A program made the translations under genes and the position numbers. The notes under the pieces were generated by a model. It saw only the letters and a program-made list of their open reading frames with translations. It ran no database searches and was not told the origin of the DNA. Shown here piece after piece: positions 29,234-59,852 of a DNA stretch of 64,000 nucleotides. Every line of letters begins with the position of its first letter. Position 1 is the first letter of the stretch. This stretch comes from an uncultured Muribaculaceae bacterium (GTDB lineage: Bacteria; Bacillota_I; Bacilli_A; RF39; UBA660). Where the stretch lies: positions 4,577-68,576 of the forward strand of contig CAYRLX010000004.1 of assembly GCA_964425325.1 (NCBI GenBank), read 5' to 3'.

Positions 29234-29236
29234 CAA

Positions 29237-34173: not shown

Positions 34174-34291
34174 TTGAAAAAAATAATCATATTTCTAATA
34201 CTACTAGGACTCATCATTACAGGAATATTTACATTCAGACAAAATAAAAAAGAAACTAAATTAAAAAAGATAAAAGTAGGTGATGCTACTA
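34174..34291 (+). pseudogene. 5' fragment of the ABC substrate-binding protein gene, interrupted by the island
   Basis: TTG start with RBS AAAGGAGAAG. Encodes (M)KKIIIFLILLGLIITGIFTFRQNKKETKLKKIKVGDAT, then crosses attL into island DNA and stops at 34321. Confidence 0.8.
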
Positions 34292-34299
34292 TAACATCA
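34284..34299. other. attL of the island
   Basis: TGCTACTA|TAACATCA, the exact reverse complement of the 16-mer at 58973-58988. Confidence 0.75.
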
Positions 34300-34447
34300 A
34301 AGCGTCATCTAACTCATCAATAATTTCATCCAAAACTAAAGACTTTTCATTATCATTTAAATCCATCTCATTAATAATATCCAAAATAAGCTCTGATTTA
34401 AATAAAGCAAAATTGTCCAAATTAATATCATTAATAAAAACACTCAT
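34289..34447 (-). CDS. 52-aa highly acidic protein ending inside attL
   Basis: ATG at 34447 with RBS GGAGGGA. Peptide MSVFINDINLDNFALFKSELILDIINEMDLNDNEKSLVLDEIIDELDDALML. Stop codon at 34289-34291 on the host side of attL. Below the track cutoff. Confidence 0.45.
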   Translation of the reverse strand: MSVFINDINLDNFALFKSELILDIINEMDLNDNEKSLVLDEIIDELDDALML

Positions 34448-34484
34448 AAAATCCCTCCAAAAGATTATATGAATGTTTTTTTAT

Positions 34485-35069
34485 TTATTGACTAGCAACT
34501 AATTTTACTTTTATTTCAATTTGCGTAACACCTGGATTACTATTTTTAAAATCATAAGCTTTCCTTCCCCAATAAGTATCCTCTTCATCATCGCCAGACT
34601 CATAAGGCCATACTACTTTAACTTTAAAATTAGAAGTCTGCCCAATTTGTACAACCGGATTATCTTGAGTAAAAGTAGTTTTAAAAGGATAGTTATTAGA
34701 AAGTATTTCCTCGAGTTCTAAAGTAGTATATTCATCCTTAGTAAAAGTTTCATCAAAAATTTTAACAGAAATAATTTCATAATTTATATTTGCTGCAACC
34801 TCACCAGAATTTTTAATCTCAACCTTCTCATTAAAATCAGGCATCCCGGGATATAAAGAATAAACATTAAAAACAACTTCGCTTTCTAAATCAGTTCCAT
34901 CCTTAGCAAAAGTAATTTTCCAAGATTTAACTCCAGCATTTATCGTATTAGAAACCTTATTACTATAAATAAACCAAGCAAAAGCATTACCAATTAAAGC
35001 TAATACAAGTAAAAATAAAGTTCTCCTTCTAACGCCATTTTTAAATTTCTTATACTTACTCTCCTTCAT
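34485..35069 (-). CDS. small secreted beta-rich protein, TasA/camelysin-like (SipW-type signal)
   Basis: Signal anchor LFLLVLALIGNAFAWFIYSN, then VKSWKITF as in paralogues 43034-43603 and 55740-56330. RBS GAGGAA. Confidence 0.6.
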   Translation of the reverse strand: MKESKYKKFKNGVRRRTLFLLVLALIGNAFAWFIYSNKVSNTINAGVKSWKITFAKDGTDLESEVVFNVYSLYPGMPDFNEKVEIKNSGEVAANINYEIISVKIFDETFTKDEYTTLELEEILSNNYPFKTTFTQDNPVVQIGQTSNFKVKVVWPYESGDDEEDTYWGRKAYDFKNSNPGVTQIEIKVKLVASQ

Positions 35070-35619
35070 CTAATTCCTCTTCTTTAGACTTTATAAAATC
35101 AATTATTTCTAAAAAAATAAGAAAAGCAATTGGAACAAAAATTAAGAAATAAAAACCAAAAGAATTATTTAAAATACCACTTAAAAAACTTAAAACAACA
35201 GTCTTATACTTGACAACACCATACACTTGATCTTGACTAACTATAGGATCTTCAAGCGGATTATTAATACCCTTAGTAGTATACTCATATACCCCATTTT
35301 TATTTTCAATATTAATAACCCTGTGGGTAATTATTTTATCTTTATAACTATCAGCTTTACCCATATATACTAAGTCATCACCAATTTTAATCTTATCAAA
35401 ATCCTTACTTCCAACTAAAATAACATCCATTATCTTATACTCAGGAAGCATACTGCCTGATGCTATAGTAAAAAGCCTGTAATTACCCAAAGCAATTTTA
35501 TTATTAAAAACTCTTTGAACTAAGATTAAAATAACAACCATAATAGCAATTATCCAAACTACTATTCTAATTAAACTAACAATAAATTTTAAAACCTTAT
35601 TATCCATTATTTTTTTCAT
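35056..35619 (-). CDS. sipW: signal peptidase I, SipW/archaeal-ER type (catalytic)
   Basis: Catalytic Ser box IASGSMLPEY, His box IITHRVI, TKGINNPLED, and a C-terminal TM helix. Confidence 0.8.
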   Translation of the reverse strand: MKKIMDNKVLKFIVSLIRIVVWIIAIMVVILILVQRVFNNKIALGNYRLFTIASGSMLPEYKIMDVILVGSKDFDKIKIGDDLVYMGKADSYKDKIITHRVINIENKNGVYEYTTKGINNPLEDPIVSQDQVYGVVKYKTVVLSFLSGILNNSFGFYFLIFVPIAFLIFLEIIDFIKSKEEELDEGE

Positions 35620-36721
35620 TTAAACCCACCTTCAAATCATGCTCTTTAGCCATATAAAGTTCAATAGCCTCTTTATACTTCTTCTCAATCACACTAGTGT
35701 CTACAACTTTTTGATATTTAACCTTTATATACTCATCACCAATTAATTTCATAACATCCTCTAAAGATAAATTATCCTTAATACTTAATAGCTGATTTAC
35801 AGTATTAGAAGCAACCTGATTTTTCAAATCATCCTCAAGTTCCTCACTCTTTTCACTAATAGAAGATTTCATAATCAAATAATCAAGTAAAAATGAATCA
35901 TTCATCATCTTCTGCAAAACCCCATTATCCTCATAACCATTATTTTTCTTCTCACGGGTGCTACTCGCTTCCATATGACTTTGCATGTAATTCCACAAAT
36001 CTAAAGCATACTGAAAATTGACATTTTTTAAAATCAAATTAGTTTTTTTAATAGGAGACACAACAGGAGCAACATGAAGACGAGCAATATCTTTGTATAC
36101 ACTAGTGCTGCATAGATCTGCAATTTTTTGTTCAAGTTTCTCTATTCTATCAAATATAGAATTCTCTTTTTTGGAACTTTCCTTCAAATCACTCTTAAGC
36201 TGCAAAGCAATCTCAATATTTTCCTTGCCTATTTTGGATTTACCTCTATACTCCAAAGAAAGCTGTTCATTTTTCGAAGTATCAGATAAATTTTCAGTCT
36301 TCTTTCTTTCAATATACATCTTCATATTATTTATCAAAGTAAATATAAACCTATTCTCATAAGTATTAAAACTCTCTTCCTTGTTTATATTTAAAATTTT
36401 AGAAGGCTTAACCTCTTCAGTTTTAGGATCATACTTTTGAATCAAATTAGTATTACGAGATAAATGTTTAATACTATCGACAGTAATACGTCTAGCAAGC
36501 TCAATTTTAACAAGTTCTTCTTCATTGACAATAAACCTATTAGGATTTCTTAAAATATTATCGATATACCTTACAGTCTCCTCCATCTTAACAAGCCACT
36601 GATCATCATAGACAGTATTGTCCTTCTTTTGATTAACATTTAAAGTAGACCTTACAGAATCATTAAATTCCTTCTTTTTAATATCATCTAAATTATTATA
36701 AAGATTTAAAACATTATTCAC
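35600..36721 (-). CDS. McrC-N-terminal-like (DUF2357-like) partner protein without a nuclease domain
   Basis: Immediately downstream of the McrB-like gene. The segment SFNTYENRFIFTLINNM resembles the McrC/DUF2357 N-terminal region. No PD-(D/E)xK motif found. GTG start with RBS AGGTGA. Confidence 0.4.
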   Translation of the reverse strand: MNNVLNLYNNLDDIKKKEFNDSVRSTLNVNQKKDNTVYDDQWLVKMEETVRYIDNILRNPNRFIVNEEELVKIELARRITVDSIKHLSRNTNLIQKYDPKTEEVKPSKILNINKEESFNTYENRFIFTLINNMKMYIERKKTENLSDTSKNEQLSLEYRGKSKIGKENIEIALQLKSDLKESSKKENSIFDRIEKLEQKIADLCSTSVYKDIARLHVAPVVSPIKKTNLILKNVNFQYALDLWNYMQSHMEASSTREKKNNGYEDNGVLQKMMNDSFLLDYLIMKSSISEKSEELEDDLKNQVASNTVNQLLSIKDNLSLEDVMKLIGDEYIKVKYQKVVDTSVIEKKYKEAIELYMAKEHDLKVGLNEKNNG

Positions 36722-36731
36722 GATTTATCAC

Positions 36732-38252
36732 CTACGTTAACTTCTTAAGACGAAGCAAATACTCCTCGCATTCTTTCATTTCGCCTTTTCCAAAAGTAGT
36801 ATCTAAAAACTCAATAAAACCATCTATTTCATCTCTAATATAAGATATATTAAGTTGTTCAAACTTTCTTAAAATCTTTCGTGCAATAAAATAATCAACT
36901 CCCGCAACCTCAGTTCCACCGCAAGCAACATATACAGGTACAAACTTACGCATATGAGCAACAATACGGTTACCAAAAGCTATCCTAAAATGTTTAATAA
37001 CATAATTATCCATCTCTTCTATTTTATTTAAAGTATCCTCACTAACCTGATTCTCATTAATAGCCGTATTAAATAAATTACGTAAATAAGAATAATTAAT
37101 GTCTTGAGCAGGAGTATCAATAGGTTCAAAAACTTCACCCTTATCATTAATGTCTATTGGCATCGCACGGTCATAAACCTTATCAGTAACCATAAATGTA
37201 GAATCATCGTTATTGATAGTACCTATATACCAAACATTAGGGCTAATCTTAAGTTTACCATCAGAAAGACGCTCTGGATCACTACTCCAACCACTAGATA
37301 CAAGTTCGACAAGCCACTCATCTTCATTAGGCATCTCCAAAATAGAAAGCATCTCCGCAAAATAATACTCAACCCTGGCAATATTCATCTCATCCAAAAT
37401 TACCGTGAAAACATCATCAGTATAACCAGCTTCATAAATAGTCTTAAGAACATCAGTTTCATTAAACTTCTTAGTAAATTCGTTAAAATAACCAAAAAGC
37501 TCAGTACGATCACGCCAAGAAGGCTGAACAGAAGCTACGCAAGAGTCATGTTTTAAAAACTTACCCCAAGCATAAGCAAGTGAAGTCTTACCAGTACCAG
37601 AAATACCCTGCAAGATAATAAGCTTAGTAGAAGCTAAAGCAGAAATAAAGATTCTAATCATCTCACTTTTATAATAAAGCTTTAACTTACTAGCCGCAAA
37701 ATTTCTAAATAGCTCGACAAGCTCCTCCAAAGTAAAATTGTTGTTATAATTCTTAATAGTATAACTAGCAAACTCCTCGTCTATATTAGCAAGTTTAGCA
37801 AACCTTCTTCCGTCATTATTATCATCTTTCTTCTCTTCGCTTACCTCTTCAGTATCACTCTCTCCAGGCTTAAGACCCAAATGAGATACTTTCATAGCTA
37901 AAATATCTTCTTTCTCTTTAACCAAAGTAGATACCTCGTCATTTAAAGTAGCAACCTCATTTAAAAGTTCTTCCTGTTCAACTAAAGTTTTCCTAAATCT
38001 AATATACTTATTTACTAAAAATATAACGAGAAATAAAAGACCACCCACAACTAAAAGCATTAAAATAACAGCTAAAACTACAAAAATCCATTCAGGCCCA
38101 TTAAAATCTTCCTTATAAAAATTAAGTATCTTTAAATAGCTTCTAAAATCAAAAATTTGAAAAAAAGCACTAATAAATCCTTTTATAATCATATAAAAGC
38201 CACCAAAGAACTGACCTAAAAACTCATAGATAAATCTTAAAAAAGTATCCAT
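36732..38252 (-). CDS. membrane-anchored McrB-like AAA+ (AAA_5) NTPase
   Basis: Two N-terminal TM helices and a coiled coil. Walker A GISGTGKTS, then VILDEMNIARVEYYFAEMLSILE and WYIGTINNDDST as in McrB-family GTPases. Confidence 0.7.
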   Translation of the reverse strand: MDTFLRFIYEFLGQFFGGFYMIIKGFISAFFQIFDFRSYLKILNFYKEDFNGPEWIFVVLAVILMLLVVGGLLFLVIFLVNKYIRFRKTLVEQEELLNEVATLNDEVSTLVKEKEDILAMKVSHLGLKPGESDTEEVSEEKKDDNNDGRRFAKLANIDEEFASYTIKNYNNNFTLEELVELFRNFAASKLKLYYKSEMIRIFISALASTKLIILQGISGTGKTSLAYAWGKFLKHDSCVASVQPSWRDRTELFGYFNEFTKKFNETDVLKTIYEAGYTDDVFTVILDEMNIARVEYYFAEMLSILEMPNEDEWLVELVSSGWSSDPERLSDGKLKISPNVWYIGTINNDDSTFMVTDKVYDRAMPIDINDKGEVFEPIDTPAQDINYSYLRNLFNTAINENQVSEDTLNKIEEMDNYVIKHFRIAFGNRIVAHMRKFVPVYVACGGTEVAGVDYFIARKILRKFEQLNISYIRDEIDGFIEFLDTTFGKGEMKECEEYLLRLKKLT

Positions 38253-38263
38253 TAAATCACCTA

Positions 38264-39223
38264 CTAACTTGGTATATATATAATCTCATATTGAGATGAA
38301 TCATAAAGTTTTCTATCAGAAGTAATAATAAAAGCAAATATTTTAAATAACTTATTATTCTCCTCGCTAAATTCAAAATTACTATCAATCTCCAGCGCAA
38401 TTTTAAATCCTCTTCTAGTAAGATCATATACCCAATCATGATTAGAAATATAATCACTATATTTTATTTTTAAAACTAATTTTTCCTTTATAATATCATT
38501 ATCGATAGTTTTAAGAAGTCTTTGATTCTTCTTAGGTTTACTAACCAAAGAAAAGACATAATCAAGTATATAAACATTATTAAAATTTCCTTTAATAACA
38601 TCCTCTAAAGCACGAACACAAGCTAAAGAATAAGATACAAATAACTTCTGTTCACTAATAGCCTTATTACTAAAAACTTTCTCAATCGCATATTCACTAT
38701 ATAGTTTAGAAAATTTCAAATTATGTTCTAAAATGCAGTAAAAAATATTATCTTTAACCTTTAAATACTTCATAGAAAAATTATTATCAGAAAAACTATC
38801 TAAAAATTTCTTTTTAGTAATTAAATCCTCTTCAAGCATATTATAAAGCTTAGATTCAAAATTACTATCGCTAAGTTTAAGCTCTATTAACCTAAACATC
38901 TTAATTTCACTTATCAATTTTCTAACAGAATCACATTCAAAAGCCCCATCAAAATAAAGCATATATTTAAACATTTTAAACATATATCTTGCTTTATCCT
39001 TAAACTTTTCATCAATATTTAAAACAGATTTTTTTAAATAATACACGATATTCTCTTCTAATTTTAGAGAAACACTAGGATATAAATTATAATACCTAGT
39101 ATTTATATAAGCATTAATCATATCATCATAAATATTTTGATCAAAATAATGATCCAAAATCAACATCAAATATTTCTTGATAGAATCTTGAGAAAAACTA
39201 ATGTATTCACTAGCAATATTCAT
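38264..39223 (-). CDS. hypothetical cytoplasmic protein
   Basis: 319-aa ORF with RBS AGGAG. No secure motif; the C-terminus (RRGFKIALEIDSNF) only vaguely resembles EAL. Confidence 0.55.
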   Translation of the reverse strand: MNIASEYISFSQDSIKKYLMLILDHYFDQNIYDDMINAYINTRYYNLYPSVSLKLEENIVYYLKKSVLNIDEKFKDKARYMFKMFKYMLYFDGAFECDSVRKLISEIKMFRLIELKLSDSNFESKLYNMLEEDLITKKKFLDSFSDNNFSMKYLKVKDNIFYCILEHNLKFSKLYSEYAIEKVFSNKAISEQKLFVSYSLACVRALEDVIKGNFNNVYILDYVFSLVSKPKKNQRLLKTIDNDIIKEKLVLKIKYSDYISNHDWVYDLTRRGFKIALEIDSNFEFSEENNKLFKIFAFIITSDRKLYDSSQYEIIYIPS

Positions 39224-39234
39224 CTAACCAACTC

Positions 39235-40152
39235 CTAATAATCATAAGTAACATTAATTACCGAAGAATTACTATAATCTATACTTTTATCATTTTTATA
39301 AAATTTAATAACATCACTAATACTAGAATCCATATCAAAAGTAAATTTTTTAACATAATTAAACCCATCTATCACTTTAGTTTCGATATTATAAGCCTTT
39401 AAATAATCAGTAGCAGTATTATCTATCTTAATAATATCAGGATCAAAACTTACAGTAATAACAGCAGAAGCACATTTCTTTTTATCCTCATCACTTAAAG
39501 ATAGATAAGTATCCACACTAATAGAATCATGAGAAGAATAACTTCCAAAAGCTTCTTTTACAAAATAAGAATCTAAAGTATTAGTTACTTTCAAATTTAA
39601 ATAATCACTTCCACTACTGTCAGATATCTCATGACCAAGTCCATATTTACCAACCACAAACGTAAAAGACGCAGAAAGTTCTTTAACATATGGTTTTAAA
39701 GACTTTGCAATAATCTTAACAGTAGTACTATCTCCATCATTAAATATAGCATTAGGTGTCATAGTAAACACAAAACTGTCAGTATTACTAGCTGATGAAA
39801 TAACCCCATCATCTTTACTAGTAGAACATATTAAATTACTAGGACACTCATAACTTATTTCATATTCTATATCAGAAGAACTTTTAAGCTTATCGTTTTT
39901 AAAACTATTTAAATTCACAACAATATCATATGGATCAACACCATTCCAATAGTCAAGAGAATATCTAGCATTATCCCTTTTTAATTTATCACTTTCAAAA
40001 TAAAAACTTTGACTCATAAAATATAAATCTAGAATTTTATTATATACGTACCTTCCAAGACTGACAGAAATAGTAATTAAAAATAAACTAATACAAAAGA
40101 TAACTATATAAATATAAACTCTAGGTATTCTTTTAAATTTTTTTAATTTCAT
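39235..40152 (-). CDS. membrane-anchored extracellular protein
   Basis: N-terminal anchor VYIYIVIFCISLFLITISVSLGRYVY, then a beta-rich S/T/D/N-rich ectodomain. ATGA overlap with the upstream gene. Confidence 0.6.
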   Translation of the reverse strand: MKLKKFKRIPRVYIYIVIFCISLFLITISVSLGRYVYNKILDLYFMSQSFYFESDKLKRDNARYSLDYWNGVDPYDIVVNLNSFKNDKLKSSSDIEYEISYECPSNLICSTSKDDGVISSASNTDSFVFTMTPNAIFNDGDSTTVKIIAKSLKPYVKELSASFTFVVGKYGLGHEISDSSGSDYLNLKVTNTLDSYFVKEAFGSYSSHDSISVDTYLSLSDEDKKKCASAVITVSFDPDIIKIDNTATDYLKAYNIETKVIDGFNYVKKFTFDMDSSISDVIKFYKNDKSIDYSNSSVINVTYDY

Positions 40153-40616
40153 GCTTTTTTATAATTTCTAAGCAAAGTAATAAAATAAAAAGTAATAGGA
40201 AATATAACAGATAATAAGTAACCAATCTTACTAGTAAAAATATTATATAAATAGCCTATAAAAGGAATAACTAAAGCATCATCTACTTTTCCAATAATAT
40301 AATCTATAGATACATATTCGTTGTCTCTAATAACAAAAGTATCATTATTAAGTACTTTCATAACCCTTTCACTATTTACAAAATTCTTACTATTTTTAGT
40401 ATCGTAAAATAAAATTTCGTCACCTATTTTAACATCGCCCTTTTTTAAAATAATTAAACTGCCCTTCTTATAATTTAATAAATCTTCTTTTAATCCAATT
40501 ATTGTCTTACCAAATAAAACACTATTAGAAAACCTATTAAAAGTAAACAATAAAACAGTATTTATAATTACAAAAAAGACAAAGATACCAATTAAAATAT
40601 ACTTTCCTACTCTCAA
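40149..40616 (-). CDS. SipW-like pseudo-peptidase (catalytic Ser and His absent)
   Basis: Same N-TM, beta-core, C-TM layout and GD...GDEILFYD / IGKV blocks as SipW. No SxSMxP box; THRV is replaced by ERVMKV. TTG start. Confidence 0.55.
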   Translation of the reverse strand: MRVGKYILIGIFVFFVIINTVLLFTFNRFSNSVLFGKTIIGLKEDLLNYKKGSLIILKKGDVKIGDEILFYDTKNSKNFVNSERVMKVLNNDTFVIRDNEYVSIDYIIGKVDDALVIPFIGYLYNIFTSKIGYLLSVIFPITFYFITLLRNYKKA

Positions 40617-40709
40617 CTATCATCACCATATCAATTGTATCATAAATTGTCAAACTTTAAAAGAAAAAGCATACTTAAAAACCATATATCAAAACTACTA
40701 CTCAATAAT

Positions 40710-40739
40710 AAAAAAAACTACACTAAATTGTGTAGTTTT
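40710..40739 (-). terminator. intrinsic terminator after the 358-aa subunit gene
   Basis: Minus strand AAAACTACAC-AATTTA-GTGTAGTTTT followed by eight T. Confidence 0.6.
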
Positions 40740-40751
40740 AATATACCCTAA

Positions 40752-41828
40752 TTATGGTTCAGGAGTTGGCGTACTAGATGAAGTATCAACAGGTTTTATA
40801 CTAAATTGTAAGTTAAAAGAAATTTGTCCACCAGAAGCATTATTCTCACAGTCAACGTCTTGTCCTTCAATCCACATATAAATTCTAATTTTAGTAATAC
40901 CAGCAGCTAAACCATCAGTTTCAGTTAAAGTTTGACTGTCAGTATAACCTTCTTTAGTTTTAATATCAGGATTAACATCAGTAAAATAAGTTTCATTTAA
41001 AGTTTGAGTAGCTTGCTCACGTTTAATTTTAGCAGACGCTGGAACAACAGCCTTAACACCAGAATAAGGAACCCAAGCATTATTACTACCAACATTTAAT
41101 GTAGTAATACCATAAGGGCTTATCGCATTGGCAACACCGTCTCCAGTATGAACATCATAGTTTGGCTCCCACATTTTAACAGTTGAACTAGTTCCTTCAT
41201 TTAAAGCTTGTACATTGGCAATTGAATCAGAAGTAGTAGTATGACCTAAAGTAACAAAAGCTATTCTAGCAGCATTTTTAATACCAGTGTCATCATTTCT
41301 AAATACAACTGTAGAATTTGGAGTCATATATAAAGTTTCATCTTGTTCATTCTTTAAGAAAATATCAAAAGCAACAAACTTACCTTGTGACTCAGCCCCA
41401 GAACTATTAGTCTCTTCAGATTTAGAAGCACTTAATATAAAGTTACCAGTAGTCTCATCTGCAAGAACTTTACCTAAGAACATCTCCATTTTACCATTCG
41501 CATCAACAACACCAGCAGTTGAAACAGGCTCTAAAGTTTCAGGTAATTGGTTAACTGCAGCAGAATAATTACCAATCGCACCAGTAATATCAGTATTAGT
41601 TATTACTGATTTCCAGTTAGTCGCATCAGTAGATATCTGAATACCACTAGATGTTGATACATTAACATCGATTGGACTTATAGTAACCTTTTCGTTAGCC
41701 GTAAACCATGCATAAGATGCAGTTCCTAAAAAGATACCAGTTGCAATCAATAAAAATAAAATTAAAAGTAATCTTCTCTCCTTCTGTTTTTGTTTCTCTT
41801 TCTTACTCATTTTTTTTGACTTAGCCAT
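40752..41828 (-). CDS. secreted TasA-like protein, candidate major filament subunit
   Basis: ATG at 41828 with a perfect RBS AGGAGG. Signal anchor ending GTASYAWFTAN. Paralogue of 53093-54070 (shared NQLP, WEPNYDVHT, IYMWIEGQDVDCENNAS). Has its own promoter and terminator. Confidence 0.65.
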   Translation of the reverse strand: MAKSKKMSKKEKQKQKERRLLLILFLLIATGIFLGTASYAWFTANEKVTISPIDVNVSTSSGIQISTDATNWKSVITNTDITGAIGNYSAAVNQLPETLEPVSTAGVVDANGKMEMFLGKVLADETTGNFILSASKSEETNSSGAESQGKFVAFDIFLKNEQDETLYMTPNSTVVFRNDDTGIKNAARIAFVTLGHTTTSDSIANVQALNEGTSSTVKMWEPNYDVHTGDGVANAISPYGITTLNVGSNNAWVPYSGVKAVVPASAKIKREQATQTLNETYFTDVNPDIKTKEGYTDSQTLTETDGLAAGITKIRIYMWIEGQDVDCENNASGGQISFNLQFSIKPVDTSSSTPTPEP

Positions 41829-41853
41829 AAAAAACCTCCTACTATTTAATTTA

Positions 41854-41882
41854 ATTCTAACACACTTTATACCAAACGGCAA
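41854..41882 (-). promoter_or_regulatory. internal promoter for the 358-aa subunit gene
   Basis: Minus strand TTGCCG (41877-41882), 17 nt, TGtTAGAAT (-10 at 41854-41859). Confidence 0.45.
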
Positions 41883-41899
41883 TACATTTTTTTAACTAT

Positions 41900-42454
41900 T
41901 TACACTTGCTTTGCATCGACGCTAATTTCAATAGTATCAATTAAGTCCTGATACATCTCGTCATTATACATTTGAGGAAAATTAACCACTAAAGTATACT
42001 TATCCGTTCTAGAAACATCATGAGTAAAACTACCAGCTAAAGATTCATACTTAAAAAAATACATACCATTACTATCTTGAATAATTTCCCTATTACCAAT
42101 TATATTCTCGTTACCATCATCCTTATATAAACTATAAGTAACAGGAATATTAGTAGTAGTTATAACCTCAAAAGTATAATCTAAATTAACCTCACTTACC
42201 TTGTCATCTTTAAAATTAGATACCTCGATATTATAAGTATAATCCTGACCATCAGGAGTAATTTCTCCAATTTTAATAGACTCAGTCTGTTTTTTAGGAT
42301 CAATTACATAAAAAGCAATCTTACTGCCAATAACTCCATTTGAATCACTATGAAATAATGAATAAGTAACTTTTATAAATATTAAACTAATAAATATACC
42401 TAAAACAACCAAAACAATACGAAAAGATAATTTAAACCTATACTTATCGAACAT
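41900..42454 (-). CDS. small secreted beta-rich protein (SipW-type signal)
   Basis: ATG at 42454 (MFDKYRF) with RBS AAGGATGG. Anchor IVLVVLGIFISLIFIKVTYSLFHSDSN. Overlaps the sipW stop by 11 nt. Confidence 0.6.
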   Translation of the reverse strand: MFDKYRFKLSFRIVLVVLGIFISLIFIKVTYSLFHSDSNGVIGSKIAFYVIDPKKQTESIKIGEITPDGQDYTYNIEVSNFKDDKVSEVNLDYTFEVITTTNIPVTYSLYKDDGNENIIGNREIIQDSNGMYFFKYESLAGSFTHDVSRTDKYTLVVNFPQMYNDEMYQDLIDTIEISVDAKQV

Positions 42455-43019
42455 TAGACCCATCCTTCTTAAGTTTAATACCAGAGTAATAAATACCAAA
42501 GTCATCATGCTTAGTAAGTATAGCTTTACCAGTATAAGAAAAAGCTAGTGAAAACATAAATAAAGTAAAACATATCATAATAATAATTTTAGGAGTAGTA
42601 ATTACCTTAAACCAAACACCCATATTAGGAAATATTTTAACTACCTTACCAACAACCTGAGAAGAAGTAATCTGTTTATCCCTCTCATTATTCGCATCTC
42701 CCTTAGTAATAAAGCCACTTCCAGTTTTAGAAATAACCCTGTGAGTAACTAAAACATTACCATCTTCAAAAGTAATAATATCATCTACATCTATTTTTTT
42801 ACTAATCTTAACTAAAATCAAATCATTAGTAGTGATAGTCGGAGCCATACTGTTACTTCCAATTTGAAAAACAGTATAAGAAAAAAAGCTGGCATAATTT
42901 TTAGATAAAATATTTAAAGAGATAAACAAATATAAACAAATTCCAAGTATTAAAAACAGAAAACAAGACAGTATCTTGCTGACTATTTTAAGAATATTTA
43001 AAACGATCTCTTTATTCAT
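42444..43019 (-). CDS. sipW: signal peptidase I, SipW/archaeal-ER type (catalytic)
   Basis: Ser box IGSNSMAPT, His box VTHRVIS, TKGDANNERD, and a C-terminal TM helix. RBS AAGGTGGTGA. Confidence 0.8.
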   Translation of the reverse strand: MNKEIVLNILKIVSKILSCFLFLILGICLYLFISLNILSKNYASFFSYTVFQIGSNSMAPTITTNDLILVKISKKIDVDDIITFEDGNVLVTHRVISKTGSGFITKGDANNERDKQITSSQVVGKVVKIFPNMGVWFKVITTPKIIIMICFTLFMFSLAFSYTGKAILTKHDDFGIYYSGIKLKKDGSNVR

Positions 43020-43033
43020 CTCATCACCACCTT

Positions 43034-43603
43034 TTATTCAGTATACTGAGTAAATTTAATATTTACAGGAATTTCAAAAGTAGAAGAAGACTGACCAAGC
43101 ATAGAATCACTTTCATTATTCGCATCATCATTTTCCCAGCTAAAAGAAACTTTAATAGTATCCTTCTTGCCAGCCTCTATCTCACTTAAACTAAAAACCC
43201 TACTGTAAACTCCAGAATTAACATCCAAAGTAGTACCATCCACACCTTCAATACTATCAAGTTTAATCTGACTATATTCATTACCACTTAAATCAATAGA
43301 TAAATCATATTTAAAAGAAACCTCAGTATCACTAGGATCAATTACAAGTAAAAACATACCAGTAACTCCAGGAGCAAATCTATCTTCATTTACATTATCA
43401 GAATTAACATAAGTTATATTATCCACATAAAAAGTATTTTCAGTATCATTTAAATTATCATTGTTTACCTTTATATTCCACTTAGCTATCGAAGAACTCG
43501 CATCTTCATCATACTTCGATTCAAACACACCAAAACTAGTAGAAATACTATGAATTGTCAAACAAAGGAAGACAAAACATAAAACAATTAATATTTTTTT
43601 CAT
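43034..43603 (-). CDS. small secreted beta-rich protein, TasA/camelysin-like
   Basis: Signal ILIVLCFVFLCLTIHSISTSFGVFES, then IAKWNIKVNN. Paralogue of 55740-56330 (shared EVSF.Y...I, SF.WE/FKWLD). Confidence 0.6.
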   Translation of the reverse strand: MKKILIVLCFVFLCLTIHSISTSFGVFESKYDEDASSSIAKWNIKVNNDNLNDTENTFYVDNITYVNSDNVNEDRFAPGVTGMFLLVIDPSDTEVSFKYDLSIDLSGNEYSQIKLDSIEGVDGTTLDVNSGVYSRVFSLSEIEAGKKDTIKVSFSWENDDANNESDSMLGQSSSTFEIPVNIKFTQYTE

Positions 43604-43612
43604 AAATCATTC

Positions 43613-44440: not shown

Positions 44441-44483
44441 ATAACTCACTTCCCTATTTTAATTTTAACACAAATCTTTCCTT

Positions 44484-46089: not shown

Positions 46090-46100
46090 AATAATCCCTC

Positions 46101-53078: not shown

Positions 53079-53092
53079 TATATATCACCTCC

Positions 53093-54070
53093 TTAAGAAG
53101 GATTAATAGTAAATTTTAAATCAAAAGTAATATCTCCATACGATGCATTATCCTCACAATCTACATCTTGTCCTTCAATCCACATATAAATTCTCATTTT
53201 TGTCACGCTAGGCTGTAAATCAGCAATTTTTTGATTAGCTCCACCATTTTTAGGAGTTTCAATACCAATACCTACATTCTTAAATAAACCAGGATATGTA
53301 CCAGCATTAGCACTTGAAATAGGAATATTAAGATTAGAAGGAATTACTGCAGTAACCCCATCATAACTAAGTCTAGAAGCCCCATTTAAAGATGTAGAAA
53401 TCCCATAAACATCTCTTGCATGAGAAACTCCATATTCTGTATGCACATCATAATTTGGTTCCCAAATAACCACATCAAGTCCATTATTTAAGCTTTGTGA
53501 AATACTAGGATTATCCGCACTACTACCCTCTGTAATAAAAGCTATTCTAGTCGCATTTTCAATACCAGAATTAGCATCCCCAGTATACTCTACCTTAGAA
53601 CTACCATCTAAATAAAGTTCCTTAGAACTATTAACCCTGAAGAAAACATCAAAAGCGATAAAATTACCATCACTTTCTTCACCAAAACCCTCAGTTTCCA
53701 TAGACCTGTCAGCTACCAATATAAAGTTATCTACACTATTAGTCGCATTACCGACAAACAACTCAAGCTTTCCATCACTAACATTTCCACCAGAAGATAC
53801 AGGATTCATCCTATAAGGAAGTTGATTAACACTCCCAGAATACTTTTCTCTTGCACTCATAATATCCGAAACTGTAACAACCTGTTTCCAATCTATCGCA
53901 TTAGTACTAACTTCAAGTCCACCATCAGTTTGAACATGAACATTAAGTGAATCAATAGAAACCATTCTATTCGCACTAAACCAAGCAAAAGTAGTAGTCA
54001 TTAAAAGAAGAGAACTAAAAAAAAGGGGAATTAATAATTTTCGTCTTCTATTTTGTTTTTCTTTCTTCAA
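53093..54070 (-). CDS. secreted TasA-like protein, paralogue of 40752-41828
   Basis: TTG start 8 nt after GGAGG. Signal ending TTTFAWFSAN. C-terminal MRIYMWIEGQDVDCEDNAS. Confidence 0.65.
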   Translation of the reverse strand: MKKEKQNRRRKLLIPLFFSSLLLMTTTFAWFSANRMVSIDSLNVHVQTDGGLEVSTNAIDWKQVVTVSDIMSAREKYSGSVNQLPYRMNPVSSGGNVSDGKLELFVGNATNSVDNFILVADRSMETEGFGEESDGNFIAFDVFFRVNSSKELYLDGSSKVEYTGDANSGIENATRIAFITEGSSADNPSISQSLNNGLDVVIWEPNYDVHTEYGVSHARDVYGISTSLNGASRLSYDGVTAVIPSNLNIPISSANAGTYPGLFKNVGIGIETPKNGGANQKIADLQPSVTKMRIYMWIEGQDVDCEDNASYGDITFDLKFTINPS

Positions 54071-54758
54071 AGTGTTCCTCCATTATTTCCATTTTTAATT
54101 TTAACTCTCCCCCTATTATCGCATCCACACAATCAGGATCATCCCCTTCTAAATAAATAACTACAGTAAATCTATCACTTTCCATAGGTTTTAGACCTTT
54201 TCTTTGTTTTAAAACAGTATACTTATTTGAATGAAAAGGTGTTGTATCAGGCTCAGGACTATCAGTAAGCTCATTTTTTTTAGCATAAACAGTCTTTACA
54301 CCATTTTCATATATCGCAATTCGAACAGCCTCGTCCACATTTTTAATAACATCAAGCATTTTAATAGAATACCAATAATTAATAACTTGATCACTAGTAT
54401 TACCGACATAAAAAGAATAAGCAATATAATTATCACCATTATGACTCCCATCTTTCTCACTATCGATGTTTGCTGGAAGCCAATCACCAGAAATGTTATC
54501 CATAAAATCAAGTTCTTTCGCATAAAGCTTATTTTGATATCTAATATCGCCTTTATTTTCGTAAAGTACAATCCCACTTTTTAAAGAAAAATTAGGATCC
54601 AAAGTAACAGTAAAATGACCACCCTTATAAACAATAGATAAGATAAAAAAAGATAAAATAAGAACTAAAAAAGAAACAAAAACAACTATTTTAGTAATCT
54701 TAAGTCTCTTTTTTCTCTTCTCTAATTTAGAAGCCGTAACTTTAACTGTTCCTGCCAT
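54048..54758 (-). CDS. membrane-anchored extracellular protein, distant member of the same family
   Basis: TM anchor IVVFVSFLVLILSFFILSIVY. The C-terminal VVIYLEGDDPDCVDAIIGGELKLKMEI matches the EGxDxDC block of the 325/358-aa proteins. First gene of the operon. Confidence 0.6.
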   Translation of the reverse strand: MAGTVKVTASKLEKRKKRLKITKIVVFVSFLVLILSFFILSIVYKGGHFTVTLDPNFSLKSGIVLYENKGDIRYQNKLYAKELDFMDNISGDWLPANIDSEKDGSHNGDNYIAYSFYVGNTSDQVINYWYSIKMLDVIKNVDEAVRIAIYENGVKTVYAKKNELTDSPEPDTTPFHSNKYTVLKQRKGLKPMESDRFTVVIYLEGDDPDCVDAIIGGELKLKMEIMEEHFEERKTK

Positions 54759-54784
54759 AATCACACATCCCTATTCTTATATAA

Positions 54785-54900: not shown

Positions 54901-54906
54901 GTATGT

Positions 54907-55296: not shown

Positions 55297-55593
55297 CTAT
55301 TTTTTCTCACTTCTTCTAAGACCAAAATCAAAATCACTGTTATCCACCGCACTCATAGAAATAGTCTTAAATAAATCATCTAAATTTAAATTATTACTAA
55401 CATCATTAATCTTTTCATCTTCTGAATATATATCTAAAACCTCTATATCCTCATCAGAAGAATCTGAAGTAGGCTTTACAATGTCATCAATATTAAAATT
55501 AGATTTAACATTTTTTTTATTTTTAAGTATTTTAAATATTAAAAAGCCACCAACAATTATAACGATAAAAAGGATAATTAAAAATAAAATCAT
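55297..55593 (-). CDS. small membrane protein with an acidic tail
   Basis: 98 aa with N-terminal TM ILFLIILFIVIIVGGFLIF and then a D/E/S-rich region. RBS GAAGGTAGG. Confidence 0.5.
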   Translation of the reverse strand: MILFLIILFIVIIVGGFLIFKILKNKKNVKSNFNIDDIVKPTSDSSDEDIEVLDIYSEDEKINDVSNNLNLDDLFKTISMSAVDNSDFDFGLRRSEKK

Positions 55594-55739
55594 AATACCA
55601 GCCTACCTTCTAAAATAATTCTACCACACAAAGAACTATTTTAAAACCCCAAACTAAACACATATTTACACATTTAAAAAATATATAATATATTTTTAAA
55701 TAAAGAAATGATATAATAAAAAAAAGAATGGAGGCAAAT

Positions 55740-56330
55740 ATGACTAAAGATAAAAAAATAAAATTATTAATAGCTATTATTGCCCTATTCATATGCATAA
55801 TACAAATAAAAGAAACATACGCCAAATATATAGAATCAAAAGATGGGGATGCTCAGTTTACAGTAGCAAGCTGGAAAATAAAAATAAATAATAGTGATAT
55901 AACACAATCGGCAAACCTATCTTCATTAATAAACCCCGTATATGAATCTAACACAAATATAAAAGATGGCGTAATCGCACCAGGAAGTCAAGGATATTTT
56001 GATATCGATATAGATGCATCAAACACAGAAGTTTCATTTAATTATGAAATAACAATCACTCCATCAGAAGAAAGTGACGTAACAGACCTCATAATATATG
56101 CATATAAAATAAACAACGGAGAAATAACAAATATAGAAAACAATGTTAATACAATAACAAATAGAATAAATAACATAGATGAAAATAAAACACTATCATT
56201 GAGAATATACTTTAAATGGTTAGATGGTGAAGGAGAAGAGATGAACAATGCAGCAGACACAGCAGCAGCTGTTGGAAGAGGAACTGGAAAAATAAATGTA
56301 AACGCTAAATTTACCCAAGTAATAAACTAA
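55740..56330 (+). CDS. small secreted beta-rich protein, TasA/camelysin-like (paralogue of 43034-43603)
   Basis: ATG at 55740, 5 nt after GGAGG. Signal LLIAIIALFICIIQIKETYAKYIES, then VASWKIKINN. Confidence 0.6.
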   Translation: MTKDKKIKLLIAIIALFICIIQIKETYAKYIESKDGDAQFTVASWKIKINNSDITQSANLSSLINPVYESNTNIKDGVIAPGSQGYFDIDIDASNTEVSFNYEITITPSEESDVTDLIIYAYKINNGEITNIENNVNTITNRINNIDENKTLSLRIYFKWLDGEGEEMNNAADTAAAVGRGTGKINVNAKFTQVIN

Positions 56331-56353
56331 AAAAGTGACTAAAAATCACTTTT
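56331..56353. terminator. bidirectional terminator
   Basis: AAAAGTGA-CTAAAAA-TCACTTTT between convergent genes. Confidence 0.5.
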
Positions 56354-57278
56354 TTATTATTGTTCCAGAAATACCTTTAATTGCTTCATAAGCCTTATCT
56401 AAAGAACCAATTATCGCTTTCTTAGAGCCACTTACAAATTCTAAAGAAGCCTCTATTTTTGGAAGCATGCTTCCTTTCGCAAACTCACCATCATCAATAT
56501 ATTTTTTAGCTTCCTCTATAGTAATTTCATCTAAAGCTTTTTGATTTTCCTTATTAAAATTAATATAAACCTTATCTACAGCAGTTAAAATCAAAAGAAT
56601 ATCTGCATCTAGCTCTCTAGCAAGCAAAGAAGCTGTACGGTCTTTATCGATAACCGCATCAACTCCTTCTAAAAGCTTAATCCTATCAGTTTTAATAACA
56701 GGAATACCTCCCCCACCAGCGCATATTACAATATTGTCATTATCAACTAACTGTTTAATAACTCTTTTTTCAATTATATCTTTAGGAATTGGAGAAGGCA
56801 CAACTCTCCTATATCCTCTTCCAGAATCCTCGATAAAAATATAACCTTTTTCTTTAGAAATAGTATCAGCTTCTTCTTTACTATAAAACTTGCCAATAGG
56901 CTTAGTAGGATTTTCAAAAGCACTATCATCTTCATCAACTAAAACTTGAGTTATTAAAGTAGCGCAGTCTCTCTTAATCCCCTCTCTTTCAAGCTCATCT
57001 TGAATACATTGCTGCATCTGATAACCAATATAGCCTTGACTCATACTACCACACTCAGCAAAAGGCATTGATGGAGTCTTAACTTCACCATGAGAAGAAT
57101 AATCCATAGCTAAATATATCTGACCAACTTGAGGTCCATTTCCATGAGTTAAAACTATTTTATTACCATCCTTGACTAATTTTACTATTACTTTAGCTAC
57201 TCCTTCGAGTAACTTAAGCTGTTCATTTTGAGTACTACCTAAAGCATTACCACCTAAAGCAATTACTATTTTACTCAT
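56346..57278 (-). CDS. arcC: carbamate kinase
   Basis: MSKIVIALGGNALG N-terminus, about 310 aa, amino-acid-kinase fold motifs (THGNGPQVG, GGGGIPV). ATG at 57278. Confidence 0.88.
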   Translation of the reverse strand: MSKIVIALGGNALGSTQNEQLKLLEGVAKVIVKLVKDGNKIVLTHGNGPQVGQIYLAMDYSSHGEVKTPSMPFAECGSMSQGYIGYQMQQCIQDELEREGIKRDCATLITQVLVDEDDSAFENPTKPIGKFYSKEEADTISKEKGYIFIEDSGRGYRRVVPSPIPKDIIEKRVIKQLVDNDNIVICAGGGGIPVIKTDRIKLLEGVDAVIDKDRTASLLARELDADILLILTAVDKVYINFNKENQKALDEITIEEAKKYIDDGEFAKGSMLPKIEASLEFVSGSKKAIIGSLDKAYEAIKGISGTIIKK

Positions 57279-57330
57279 TCCTATCACCATACTTTCTACA
57301 AAAATTATAACACATATTTCAAACTAAAAC

Positions 57331-57374
57331 ACTTTACACTTTCGCAAAAAAAGAAAATCTTTGGAGAATATTAC
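57331..57374 (+). repeat. 44-nt conserved motif, copy C
   Basis: ACTTTACACTTTCGCAAAAAAAGAAAATCTTTGGAGAATATTAC, in the divergent arcC/recombinase intergenic region. Confidence 0.8.
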
Positions 57375-57397
57375 TAATAAACAGAATATAATTTACT

Positions 57398-58975
57398 ATG
57401 GAAAAAGAAAAATATATAGCTATTTATAGTAGAAAATCAAAATATACCGGAAAAGGAGAAAGTATAAATAACCAAATAGAAAAATGCAAAAATTATCTCA
57501 AATATAAGAACATAAATAAAAAAACAAAAATATACAAAGATGAAGGATATACAGGCTACAATACAAAAAGACCAGAATTTCAAAGACTTTTAGAAGATAT
57601 AAAAAAAGAAAAAATAGAAATGCTTGTAGTCTATAAACTAGATAGAATAAGCAGAAACGTAACAGACTTTTGTAACCTAAAAGAAAAATTAGAAAAAAAT
57701 AAAATAAACTTTATATCAGTAACAGAACAGTTTGACACATCCACCCCACTAGGAAACGCGATGCTTATGATATCATCAGTATTCGCACAGCTAGAAAGAG
57801 ACACAATAGCTGAAAGAATAAAAGATAATATGTATGATCTTGCTAAAACAGGAAGATGGCTTGGAGGAAATACACCATTAGGATACGAATCAGAAAAAAT
57901 AGAAACTATAGATATAGATGGTAAAAAAAGAAATATGTATAAGTTAAAACAAATTCCAGAAGAAGTAGAAACTATAAAACTACTGTGGAAAAAACTAATA
58001 GAACTAAAAGGAATAAATAAATTAGAAAGCTACCTAATAAAAAATAGCATAAAAACTAGAAGAGGAAACTACTTCTCCAGATTCGCACTTATAAATATAT
58101 TTAAAAATCCAGTATATGTCATCTCAGATGAAAATATAATAAATTTTTTCAAAGAAAAAGGATCGATTATTAATGCGCAAAAAATAAATAATAAAAATGG
58201 ATTAATCGCTTATAGTAAAAGAATAGAAAAAAAAGGAAAAACACAAATAGATAAAGATATTAAAGATTGGATAATATCGGTTGGAAAACATGAAGGAATA
58301 ATTAATAGTAATGACTTCATAAAAACATGGAATTTATTAGAAAAAAACAAAGACAAAAGATTTAGAAAGCCAAGACAAAATGAATCAATACTATCAGGAA
58401 TAATAAAATGTAAAAAATGTGGTAGTTTTATGAGACCAAGACTTAGAAAAACATATAATAATGGAAAAAGAAACTATTCTTATCTTTGTGAATTAAAAGA
58501 AAAAAGCAGAAAATCATTATGCAGTTCTAAAAACATAGATGGAATAAAAACCGATAAAATAATAATAGAGGAAATTTCAAAAATTAAAGTTAAATCTAAT
58601 TTAATCAATAAATATCTAAGAAAAAAAAGAATAAAACAAAATGATAATAACATAGATAAATTATACAAAGAAAACGAAATTAAAATTAAAAACCTTTTAA
58701 AAAAATTAACTATAATAGATAATGAACTGATAGATGATATTCAAAAAGAAATCAAAAAGTTAAGACAAAATAACATAAATATTAAAAAACAAATACTAAA
58801 AGAAAATAAAAAAATAAATAAAAATAAAATAAAAGAAATATCAAAAAATATAATAAAAAATCATATGAAATTATTTCACAATTTAAATCTCATAAATAAA
58901 AAGACACTAATTAGAATAATAATAGAAAAAATAGAAATAGAGGAAAACAATATCTATATAATTTTAAAACCATGA
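57398..58975 (+). CDS. large serine recombinase (integrase)
   Basis: Resolvase catalytic domain (IAIYSRKSK, VVYKLDRISRN), recombinase domain, Cys zinc ribbon (CKKCGS...C), long coiled-coil tail. The TGA stop lies inside attR. Confidence 0.9.
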   Translation: MEKEKYIAIYSRKSKYTGKGESINNQIEKCKNYLKYKNINKKTKIYKDEGYTGYNTKRPEFQRLLEDIKKEKIEMLVVYKLDRISRNVTDFCNLKEKLEKNKINFISVTEQFDTSTPLGNAMLMISSVFAQLERDTIAERIKDNMYDLAKTGRWLGGNTPLGYESEKIETIDIDGKKRNMYKLKQIPEEVETIKLLWKKLIELKGINKLESYLIKNSIKTRRGNYFSRFALINIFKNPVYVISDENIINFFKEKGSIINAQKINNKNGLIAYSKRIEKKGKTQIDKDIKDWIISVGKHEGIINSNDFIKTWNLLEKNKDKRFRKPRQNESILSGIIKCKKCGSFMRPRLRKTYNNGKRNYSYLCELKEKSRKSLCSSKNIDGIKTDKIIIEEISKIKVKSNLINKYLRKKRIKQNDNNIDKLYKENEIKIKNLLKKLTIIDNELIDDIQKEIKKLRQNNINIKKQILKENKKINKNKIKEISKNIIKNHMKLFHNLNLINKKTLIRIIIEKIEIEENNIYIILKP

Positions 58976-58988
58976 TGTTATAGTAGCA
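58973..58988. other. attR of the island
   Basis: TGATGTTA|TAGTAGCA, the exact reverse complement of attL. Confidence 0.75.
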
Positions 58989-59852
58989 GAAGTAACACAT
59001 AGTATATTTTATGCTCCCCAGTATCTAGCCCACTCTAAAGGATACTTCAAAGACGAAGGACTAGATGTAGAAATACTACTAACATCAGGAGCAGATAAAG
59101 TAACATCTGCCATTTTATCAGGAGACGTACAAATAGGATTCTGTGGAAGTGAATCAACAATATACATCTATAATCAAGGACAAAAAGACTATCTTATAAA
59201 CTTTGCTGGTTTAACAAAAAAAGATGGAAGTTTTTTGATTTCAAGAAAAAAAATAAATAATTTTAAACTAGAAGATTTAAAAGGAAAACACGTAATAGCC
59301 GGAAGAGAAGGCGGAATGCCAGCCATGACACTAGAATATGCTATAAATAAAAATGGTATTAAGACTGAAGAATTAAACTTTGACACAAGTATTGATTTTG
59401 CAAGTATTTCAGGTGCGTTTATAGGAGGAACAGGAGATTTTGTATCCCTATTTGAACCAACTGCTTCAGAATTTGTAAAAAAAGGATATGGATATAAAGT
59501 AGCATCAATTGGAAAGCTTGGAGGAGAAGTTCCATACACATCATACATAGCTAAAAAAAGCTACATAAATAATAATACTAAAACAATAAAAGGATTTACA
59601 AAAGCCATTCAAAGAGGACTTGACTATGTAAAAAATCATACAAGTAAAGAAATAGCTAAAGAAATAAAAGAATATTTCCCAGATACAAAAGAAGAAGAAT
59701 TAGAAACTATAGTTCAAAACTATAAAGACATAGATGCGTGGAAAAAAGACACAAAAATCACTAAAAAAGAATTTAATCATATACAAGAAATAGTTAAAAA
59801 TGCTGGTAAGTTAGACAAACAAGCACCTTATTCAAAACTAGTATTAAAATAA
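58981..59852 (+). pseudogene. 3' fragment of the ABC substrate-binding protein gene (NMT1/SsuA-like)
   Basis: Open frame from 58968 encoding ..IVAEVTHSIFYAPQYLAHSKGYFKDEGLDVEILL... to the stop at 59852. No in-frame start codon before TTG at 59235. Followed by the cognate ATPase and permease genes. Confidence 0.8.

Follow-up and report, generated by a model that had tools for sequence, protein, structure and literature searches.

We analysed a 64,000-nt stretch of DNA (the window; all positions are window positions) from an uncultured Muribaculaceae bacterium, in which an island of ∼24.7 kb lies inside the gene for an NMT1-type substrate-binding protein of an ATP-binding cassette (ABC) importer (island with the two gene fragments, 34174-59852). 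The insertion point is codon 36, in the 5' part of the coding sequence. The island holds 20 open reading frames (ORFs) and one further ORF of 52 amino acids (aa), and its GC content is like that of the flanks. Below, L-numbers denote related loci (e.g. L024, L117), P-numbers denote proteins (e.g. P0001), and D and E are the 5' and 3' fragments of the interrupted gene. The features at and around the two junctions are:

34119..34173, + strand: promoter and ribosome-binding-site (RBS) region of the binding-protein gene, with the conserved motif gaatataataatatgaaaYgaaaggagaag
34174..34283, + strand: 5' fragment D of the binding-protein gene; TTG start, 36 codons, then the crossover GA
34282..34283, no strand: putative crossover dinucleotide GA of the left junction (attL), the sole sequence common to both junctions
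34284..34299, no strand: left terminal inverted repeat TGCTACTATAACATCA, one putative attP half-site; identical in L113 and L117
34289..34447, - strand: 52-aa acidic ORF at the left island end, reading outward into the repeat; core gene
57398..58975, + strand: large serine recombinase, 525 aa, with its TGA stop inside the right repeat
58973..58988, no strand: right terminal inverted repeat TGATGTTATAGTAGCA, the other putative attP half-site
58989..58990, no strand: putative crossover dinucleotide GA of the right junction (attR); homology to the empty-site locus L024 begins exactly at 58989
58989..59852, + strand: 3' fragment E of the binding-protein gene; 287 codons plus stop, without its own start codon or signal peptide
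59852-60589, + strand: ABC ATPase of the same importer, supported by gene calls and Pfam domains in L027
60552 (start of the listed ORF) to 61364, + strand: permease of the same importer; the gene call in a relative would put its start near 60582

Fragment D has a good RBS and encodes a signal anchor that ends ...KLKKIKVG, after which the frame enters unrelated DNA; it is colinear with the N-termini of the intact orthologs P0001, P0004, P0005 and P0255. The motif upstream of it is kept in the window, in the occupied locus L117 and in front of the intact genes of L037 and L024, and is deleted in the decayed locus L121. Fragment E is an open frame from 58989 that encodes EVTHSIFYAPQY... and stops at 59852. 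Reading the sequences of all lineages, we found that the stretch from the upstream stop to 58989 never contains an ATG, GTG or TTG in frame. The joined D+E protein matched Pfam NMT1 with 91 bits over profile positions 5-212 of 216. A preliminary description of this DNA had identified both borders, i.e. a TTG-initiated ORF at 34174 carrying a signal anchor that runs into unrelated DNA, and a start-less frame for the mature NMT1-type protein followed by its ATPase and permease; our analysis agrees on each, including the colinear alignment of the fused protein to the NMT1 profile that had been suggested as a check. In two NCBI entries, MBR3230066.1 and MBR2708389.1 (P0244 and P0245), E is annotated as a 290-aa 'ABC transporter substrate-binding protein' starting MVAEVTHS, inside the right repeat. 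A further protein that ends in the 3' fragment is P0252 (357 aa; P0001 cluster; from a 1732-bp contig). Its N-terminus resembles a glycyl-radical-enzyme activase and reads in frame from ...KDVT into VAEVTHS, passing through a right-repeat-like sequence (back-translated from the peptide); either another element that shares this repeat or a chimeric contig may account for it.

To place the break points, we compared the junctions with one another and with uninterrupted relatives. Homology to the empty sites ends at GGT,GA...GA,AGT, where the commas mark the breaks. The bases flanking GA differ between attL and attR, and there is no longer target duplication. Directly inside both junctions, the island ends pair as inverted repeats over 16 of 16 positions; the window contains 2 matches to the repeat with ≤2 mismatches, against 0.09 expected, and none of 100 shuffles reached 2. 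The right repeat has the variants TGACGTTACAGTAGCA in L030 and TAATGTTAAAGTAGCA in L109. The correct deletion is then 34284-58990 or, equivalently, 34282-58988, a length of 24,707 bp. Excised in silico, it leaves ...AAAGTAGGT-GA-AGTAACA... and a 323-aa protein reading KIKVGEVTHS. The rebuilt DNA is colinear codon for codon with the intact genes at seven loci (L001, L002, L024-L026, L036 and L037), which read ...GT(T/A)G(G/C)N-GA-(A/G)GT... and match the excision product, and the rebuilt protein is colinear with 11 intact orthologs (69-91% identity), all with KIKVG-EVTHS. The predicted attB of the strain is ...AAAAAGATAAAAGTAGGTGAAGTAACACATAGTATATT... and the predicted attP is ...ATGATGTTATAGTAGCA-GA-TGCTACTATAACATCAAAG... 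(as a junction string, ...AAAACCATGATGTTATAGTAGCAGATGCTACTATAACATCAAAGCG...). The predicted circle junction, ...TGATGTTATAGTAGCA-GA-TGCTACTATAACATCA..., would be a symmetric attP around a non-palindromic dinucleotide, an arrangement described for serine integrases (PMC5499854, PMC5595907). A shared crossover of two base pairs together with an inverted-repeat attP is what a serine-integrase att architecture would look like, and the predicted sites have both.

The preliminary description had proposed a different deletion, 34292-58980. As it stated, that cut is in frame (329 aa), but it adds six residues, DATIVA, that are absent from 11 of 11 intact orthologs, which show a six-residue gap opposite them, and we rejected it. 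Each of its cut points is 9 bp off, and the empty-site and circle-junction strings derived from them are therefore wrong. The frame was preserved because symmetric cutting inside the inverted repeat adds 9 + 9 bases, and the symmetry of the repeat likewise accounts for the apparent 'palindromic attB' of that cut. With the corrected cut, the central proposal, that the island splits the binding-protein gene and that its removal restores the gene, is upheld (323 aa). The earlier observation was thus right in substance and wrong in coordinates, and is partly confirmed. Identical attL and attR sequences occur in contigs of several samples and from two assembly sources; the same junctions in independent assemblies exclude an assembly artefact. 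Promoter and terminator scans at the junctions gave results no better than shuffles, and Rfam and tRNA scans of the window gave no matches.

The 525-aa protein abutting the right junction is the only recombinase in the window, as the preliminary description had it. All of its domains score above their cut-offs: PF00239 (Resolvase, 130 bits), PF07508 (Recombinase) and PF13408 (Zn_ribbon_recom). It also matches the phage integrase family PHROG 95 with 335 bits and the catalytic domain of TP901-1 integrase with E = 7e-21, and its N-terminus, AIYSRKS, contains the Y-x-R-x-S motif, the nucleophile motif of serine recombinases. From this domain set we predict that it is a serine integrase. Matches to NCBIfam models of named families were low: CcrB 135 bits and CcrC 109 bits (cut-offs 900), CcrA 57 bits (cut-off 700) and XisF 103 bits (cut-off 375). 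We therefore rejected orthology to the Ccr recombinases, for which the scores fall far under the cut-offs.

At the other end of the island lies the 52-aa ORF. Its 32 N-terminal residues are conserved in L117, and the ORF is present wherever the left end is available (the window, L113 and L117); in both of the seemingly immobilised loci, L024 and L121, it is truncated at its 5' end. Its position, conservation, truncation in these two loci and SprB-like size make it the best candidate for a recombination directionality factor, a role that we infer from these features.

To explore how the island is distributed, we examined related loci. Recombinases at the same codon, abutting the same 3' fragment, are found in L034 (93% identity), L117 (84%), L030/L031 (81%) and L109 (65%). 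All of the related islands (L034, L117, L030 and L109) share the carbamate kinase gene arcC, and their cargo modules differ. The minimal island, L117-L120, is ∼3 kb and consists of the 52-aa ORF, an ORF of 43 to 46 aa, carbamate kinase and the recombinase; in L117 the left repeat is identical to that of the window, and D and the promoter motif are intact though diverged. In L030 and L109, an agmatine deiminase operon (ended by arcC) and a polyamine-type ABC transporter lie between carbamate kinase and the recombinase. In the window, the space between the 52-aa ORF and a small membrane ORF of 98 aa is instead filled by ∼20 kb of secretion and surface genes. A small ORF occurs at the position of this 98-aa ORF in all related islands except L034, whose contig is truncated; matched by position, the ORFs are of 43 aa (L117), 107 aa (L030), 96 aa (L109) and, at L121, 97 aa. 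The island is thus a small conserved core with swappable cargo modules.

True empty sites are found at L037 and L036, where the left-flank neighbours of the window (UvrD, an M23 peptidase and a 157-aa gene) are followed by an intact binding-protein gene. The preliminary description had suggested a search for an empty site; related lineages have one, and the strain itself yielded none. Lineages with and without the island are interleaved, intact and interrupted alleles share 93-95% protein identity, and over E the closest intact protein has 95% identity. Because of the interleaving and this close intact protein, we conclude that scar-free loss of the island has occurred repeatedly. At L036 (3973-7039), the block comprising a 158-aa gene, the binding-protein gene, the ATPase gene and the permease gene is inverted relative to its flanks when compared with L037 and the window. 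A separate difference in the left flank is a two-gene insertion between the DNA ligase and UvrD genes (window 27913-30443), absent from L024, which encodes a 394-aa unknown protein and a 350-aa ORF (in the source-contig gene call, a 342-aa YhcG/DUF1016-type nuclease).

Other loci show further rearrangements, and the importer operon is a repeated target. At L024-L026 (L024 8560-9956), the binding-protein gene is intact and its start is preceded, at a distance of ∼50 bp, by island remnants. These comprise the opening codons of the 52-aa ORF, a stretch of 54 aa left from the membrane ORF that has ...EIEVLDIY... in common with the 98-aa protein, and carbamate kinase with its upstream spacer. As arcC is found here beside an intact gene, we considered whether carbamate kinase is a chromosomal gene, which would have spoken against a simple insertion, and rejected this: L036 and L037 lack arcC, the L117 island carries it, and L024 holds other island remnants. 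The locus L121 (1400-1700), examined for a left-repeat change to match the L030-type right repeat, proved to be a different lineage and is decayed: its start codon is TTA instead of TTG, and it has lost the RBS and promoter motif, with one substitution in the left repeat, a 5'-truncated 52-aa ORF and an internal deletion in the gene for a 200-aa protein. At L111/L112 (L111 2549-15070), two recombinase elements divide the binding-protein gene into three pieces, all in frame. The first lies at the same codon and has a 566-aa recombinase (60% identity), surface proteins and the shared core GAAGTTACCC; the second, 36 codons downstream, has a 452-aa serine recombinase, an M23 peptidase gene and the shared core GGTG. 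In L002 (11005-14297), it is the ATPase gene that is interrupted: an element of 2.5 kb, encoding a 501-aa serine recombinase and with ATTGC(T/C)GAGGCAAT repeated at both ends, lies at VTHDIAEA. In the closest relative, L034 (3560-6847), ATPase homology stops at window position 60265, after LSGGMRQRV, and is followed by unrelated DNA with a Flg_new surface-protein gene.

We estimated the age of the association by comparing the proportion of synonymous differences (pS) in island genes (recombinase, carbamate kinase and the 200-aa protein) with that in flanking host genes. Against L034, pS was 0.13 for the island and 0.21-0.22 for the host; against L030, 0.43-0.52 and 0.35-0.49; against L109, 0.55-0.60 and 0.43-0.68; and against L117, 0.46-0.48 and 0.40-0.44. 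These values suggest that the islands are long-term residents that co-diverged with their hosts, old rather than freshly inserted. We also measured selection on the split gene. Between interrupted lineages, the ratio of non-synonymous to synonymous substitution rates (dN/dS) of E was 0.04-0.17, like that of pairs involving intact genes; against L030 and L034 it was 0.04 at dS of 0.26-0.70. No occupied lineage has a stop codon within the 287 codons of E. Constraint is just as strong on the first 82 codons, which precede the sole plausible internal start (ratio of the proportions of non-synonymous and synonymous differences, pN/pS, 0.02-0.25). In a neutral simulation with 10% substitutions, E stayed open 0.4% of the time. 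The window itself has an intact recombinase, an intact 52-aa ORF and two intact 16-bp repeats, and neither D and its promoter motif nor any of the 287 codons of E is disrupted. The pattern indicates that both halves of the gene are under purifying selection and have been kept functional across the occupied lineages. In this the island is more like the gene-intervening elements rebuilt by programmed excision (skin, SPβ, vfbin, gin) than like a cassette that merely inactivates its target.

The remaining features of the island are:

34485..54764, all on the - strand: variable cargo block of ∼20 kb with 16 ORFs, most of it absent from the ∼3-kb island of L117
35056-35619 and 42444-43019, - strand: SipW/archaeal-type signal peptidase I, clear matches (TIGR02228, 78.6 and 75.5 bits, cut-off 51.85)
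35600-36721, - strand: DUF2357 protein (PF09823)
36732-38252, - strand: membrane-anchored AAA protein, 506 aa, with N-terminal membrane segments (PADLOC PDC-M26A, 118 bits)
40149-40616 and 43613-44449, - strand: weak signal-peptidase-like ORFs
40752-41882 and 53093-54070, - strand: paralogous secreted proteins (376-aa/325-aa pair) with a YAWF(S/T)xN N-terminus and an invariant W
46101-53078, - strand: 2325-aa repetitive protein
55297..55593, - strand: small membrane protein, 98 aa, in the core kept by relatives
55728..56330, + strand: 200-aa secreted-type protein, paralog of the ORF at 43034-43603
56346..57290, - strand: carbamate kinase, arcC (TIGR00746, 388 bits, cut-off 358); core island gene

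Several cargo genes form paralog pairs. The 200-aa protein has orthologs in the islands of L030 (86%) and L109 (65%). The DUF2357 and AAA genes (35600-38252) may form a McrBC-like pair carried as cargo, and are a candidate defence pair. The 325-/376-aa pair falls in a large family, so far uncharacterised, of which there are 1076 cluster representatives. An AlphaFold model of the 325-aa protein from a 36-sequence input reached a predicted local distance difference test score (pLDDT) of 88.8; a model from a two-sequence input (pLDDT 39) was discarded. Foldseek found no PDB neighbour for the former (best E = 0.018; query-length-normalised template modelling scores ≤0.20), and the family profile had no Pfam or PDB sequence match. 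An identity with TasA/camelysin, which we considered for the YAWF(S/T)xN proteins, is unsupported by the profile and structure searches.

Taken together, these results are good evidence, at the level of sequence comparison, for a maintained and still removable element. We consider it probable that the island is a non-phage, non-conjugative gene-intervening element, integrated by its own large serine recombinase at the GA in codon 36 of an NMT1/NitT-TauT-type importer gene, and that it acts as a reversible or bet-hedging switch. The recombinase alone would catalyse attP × attB integration; D, which supplies the promoter, start codon and signal anchor, would be cut off from E, the mature domain, and the importer would be turned off. 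With a directionality factor, for which the 52-aa end gene is the candidate, attL × attR recombination would rebuild the 323-aa gene and release a non-replicating circle of 24.7 kb. Re-integration of the circle, or re-acquisition from kin, would then return the island to lineages that express the gene. The cell or lineage would thereby alternate between an 'importer on' state and one of 'island cargo present'; the surface and secretion genes, the candidate defence pair and carbamate kinase make up this cargo, plus the agmatine pathway in some relatives.

The argument for a return path comes from the state of the two gene halves. Had the ancestors of today's island-bearing genomes always carried the island and never expressed the gene, the halves should have decayed, and they have not. 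Given the intact halves and the co-divergence of island and host, the ancestry of the island-bearing genomes must include a contribution from the rebuilt, expressed state. The return path must run either through excision and later re-integration, or through loss of the island, its re-acquisition from kin and recombination of intact alleles. We favour the within-cell route because the recombinase, both repeats and the conserved small end gene are intact and because serine integrases re-integrate, which they do efficiently once the directionality factor is gone (PMC5499854); the two routes are not separable on these data. A wider version of this reading is tentative, and we would sooner doubt it than rely on it: that this is a programmed reversible rearrangement outside sporulation and heterocyst development, in which recombinase-bounded cassettes long co-inherited in the genes of one ABC importer in uncultured low-GC gut Bacilli are excised and re-integrated to toggle the importer, with up to two nested elements and the gene in three pieces, and with the 52-aa gene as a new small directionality factor.

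Several observations weigh against the reversible switch. Searches for the attP and attB of the strain in IMG/VR and a metagenome contig collection gave no genuine match: the query TGAYGTTAYAGTAGCAGA had 50 matches in IMG/VR and ATGATGTTATAGTAGCAGA had 18 among the metagenome contigs, all with unrelated flanks and so due to chance. The exact rebuilt 323-aa protein is absent from a collection of 15 billion proteins, and every contig of the strain is the integrated form. The 52-aa ORF has no family match in profile scans. The co-divergence comparison is based on two to three island genes per pair, with the deeper pairs near synonymous saturation. Recombination with island-free conspecifics could keep E functional-looking without any reversibility within the cell. 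Simple excision cannot yield the arrangement at L024, which would require the circle to have re-inserted at a secondary or illegitimate site and then to have lost both ends. The break in the ATPase gene of L034 may be a further insertion, and so possibly a second disruption of the importer, or an assembly break.

A rival explanation is an ordinary mobile island that is polymorphic for presence and absence within each host species and knocks the gene out. Island-free conspecifics would keep the gene functional, homologous recombination and occasional re-acquisition (e.g. by transformation) would shuttle intact alleles and islands, and there would be no switch within the cell. The 93-95% protein identity of intact and interrupted alleles, the interleaving of empty and occupied lineages and the lack of an excised form in the assemblies are all as this explanation expects, and an excised circle with no replication function would dilute out. 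Against it, the island genes are as diverged as the host genes in four independent comparisons, marking long-term residents, and the island has no transfer machinery. The scar-free empty sites would still need precise excision by the recombinase, and the explanation differs from the reversible switch only in where the return path runs. We regard it as unlikely, though it deserves more weight than the two alternatives that follow. Were the island instead a dead insertion, integrated once and no longer excisable, the importer would be a pseudogene in this strain. All contigs of the strain are indeed integrated, some relatives are decayed or immobilised (L121 without start and RBS, L024 with remnants) and L034 may have an additional ATPase disruption; but the recombinase, repeats, 52-aa ORF, D and E are all intact in the window, and neither the dN/dS of 0.04 for E against L030 and L034 at dS of 0.26-0.70 nor the 0.4% chance of E remaining open after 10% neutral substitution is readily reconciled with a pseudogene. 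A dead insertion is correspondingly improbable.

Even less credible, in our judgement, is a degraded prophage, phage satellite or cassette of the staphylococcal cassette chromosome (SCC) type. It draws on the best PHROG match, to the phage integrase family phrog_95, and on the best NCBIfam matches being the CcrB, CcrC and XisF models. Against this, no capsid, portal, tail, terminase, packaging, lysis or replication family was found among all ORFs with Pfam, NCBIfam and PHROGs, although remote homologs may remain among the unknowns; across all ORFs, the integrase alone had a PHROG match apart from the AAA protein, for which there was a weak DnaC-like P-loop match; and no ORF had a Pfam or NCBIfam match to a relaxase, coupling protein or type IV secretion system (T4SS). 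The preliminary description's statement that capsid, tail, relaxase and T4SS genes are absent is therefore borne out for the 20 ORFs and the 52-aa ORF. Furthermore, there is no matching IMG/VR sequence, the Ccr models gave 57-135 bits against cut-offs of 700-900, and the site lies inside a coding sequence and not at the 3' end of rlmH. The earlier reading of a 'recombinase-only island' was right; the SCC analogy attached to it is weak.

Known gene-intervening elements with serine recombinases lie mainly in sporulation genes and in heterocysts, where excision occurs in cells without descendants. The target here is not a sporulation or differentiation gene; it is the binding protein of an ABC importer, and no earlier account of such an element in a gene for a binding protein came up in our literature searches. 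A transporter target with a rebuilt state that feeds back into the lineage would extend gene control by DNA splicing to ordinary gut-bacterial physiology. There is also a warning for annotation: truncated genes in metagenome-assembled genomes, such as MBR3230066.1 and MBR2708389.1, may be split and not dead. Finally, the recombinase is a candidate tool, i.e. a serine integrase with attB, attP, attL and attR at base resolution, natural half-site variants and directionality-factor candidates, all testable in Escherichia coli.

The nearest described system is gin, followed by the SPβ (SprA/SprB) and skin elements. gin, in gerE of Bacillus cereus ATCC 10987, is a non-phage island whose serine recombinase GirC excises it together with the small directionality factor GirX (PMC5595907). 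Like gin, the island described here is a non-phage island in a coding sequence, with precise excision (here predicted) by a large serine recombinase and a small accessory factor, a cargo with defence-type genes and many unknowns, and an attP-type inverted repeat around a central dinucleotide. The differences are that gin has three recombinases, a sporulation regulator as target and excision in the mother cell, which is terminal, whereas here there is one recombinase, a transporter target, no known developmental context and a required return path. Moreover, gin copies are identical between strains, pointing to recent transfer, whereas here island and host have co-diverged.

SPβ (SprA/SprB, in spsM), skin (SpoIVCA, in sigK) and skinCd are likewise gene-intervening elements (PMC4191935, PMC5499854, PMC5025042). 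They share with the island a large serine recombinase at one end of the element and a gene rebuilt by attL × attR recombination, as predicted here; the SPβ attP also has a 16-bp perfect inverted repeat, and its directionality factor SprB, at ∼8.5 kDa, is near the size of the 52-aa candidate. They are, however, prophages or remnants of prophages in sporulation genes, and their excision is irreversible, in a terminally differentiating cell, whereas the element here is without phage genes and its evolutionary pattern needs a return path. A reversible precedent is active lysogeny, e.g. the Listeria comK prophage, in which an integrated element silences a host gene and excision without loss of the host reactivates it. 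The term is used in PMC5499854. The proposed on/off control of a host gene by an element would be alike in both; those elements are prophages that can replicate, in contrast to the element here, which lacks genes for replication and virions.

SCCmec and other SCC elements resemble the island in having large serine recombinases, no phage or conjugation genes and a modular, composite cargo. The Ccr recombinases can integrate and excise without a directionality factor (PMC5595907). SCC enters the 3' end of rlmH (orfX) without inactivating it, whereas the element here splits the 5' part of its gene, and its recombinase is not a Ccr ortholog. In Anabaena, the serine recombinase XisF excises the intervening fdxN element and rebuilds the gene; excision takes place in heterocysts, which are terminal cells, and several elements can interrupt genes of one pathway. 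The XisF model gives 103 bits against a cut-off of 375 here and excision of the fdxN element is restricted to heterocysts, but the occurrence of several elements in one pathway parallels the three-piece binding-protein gene of L111.

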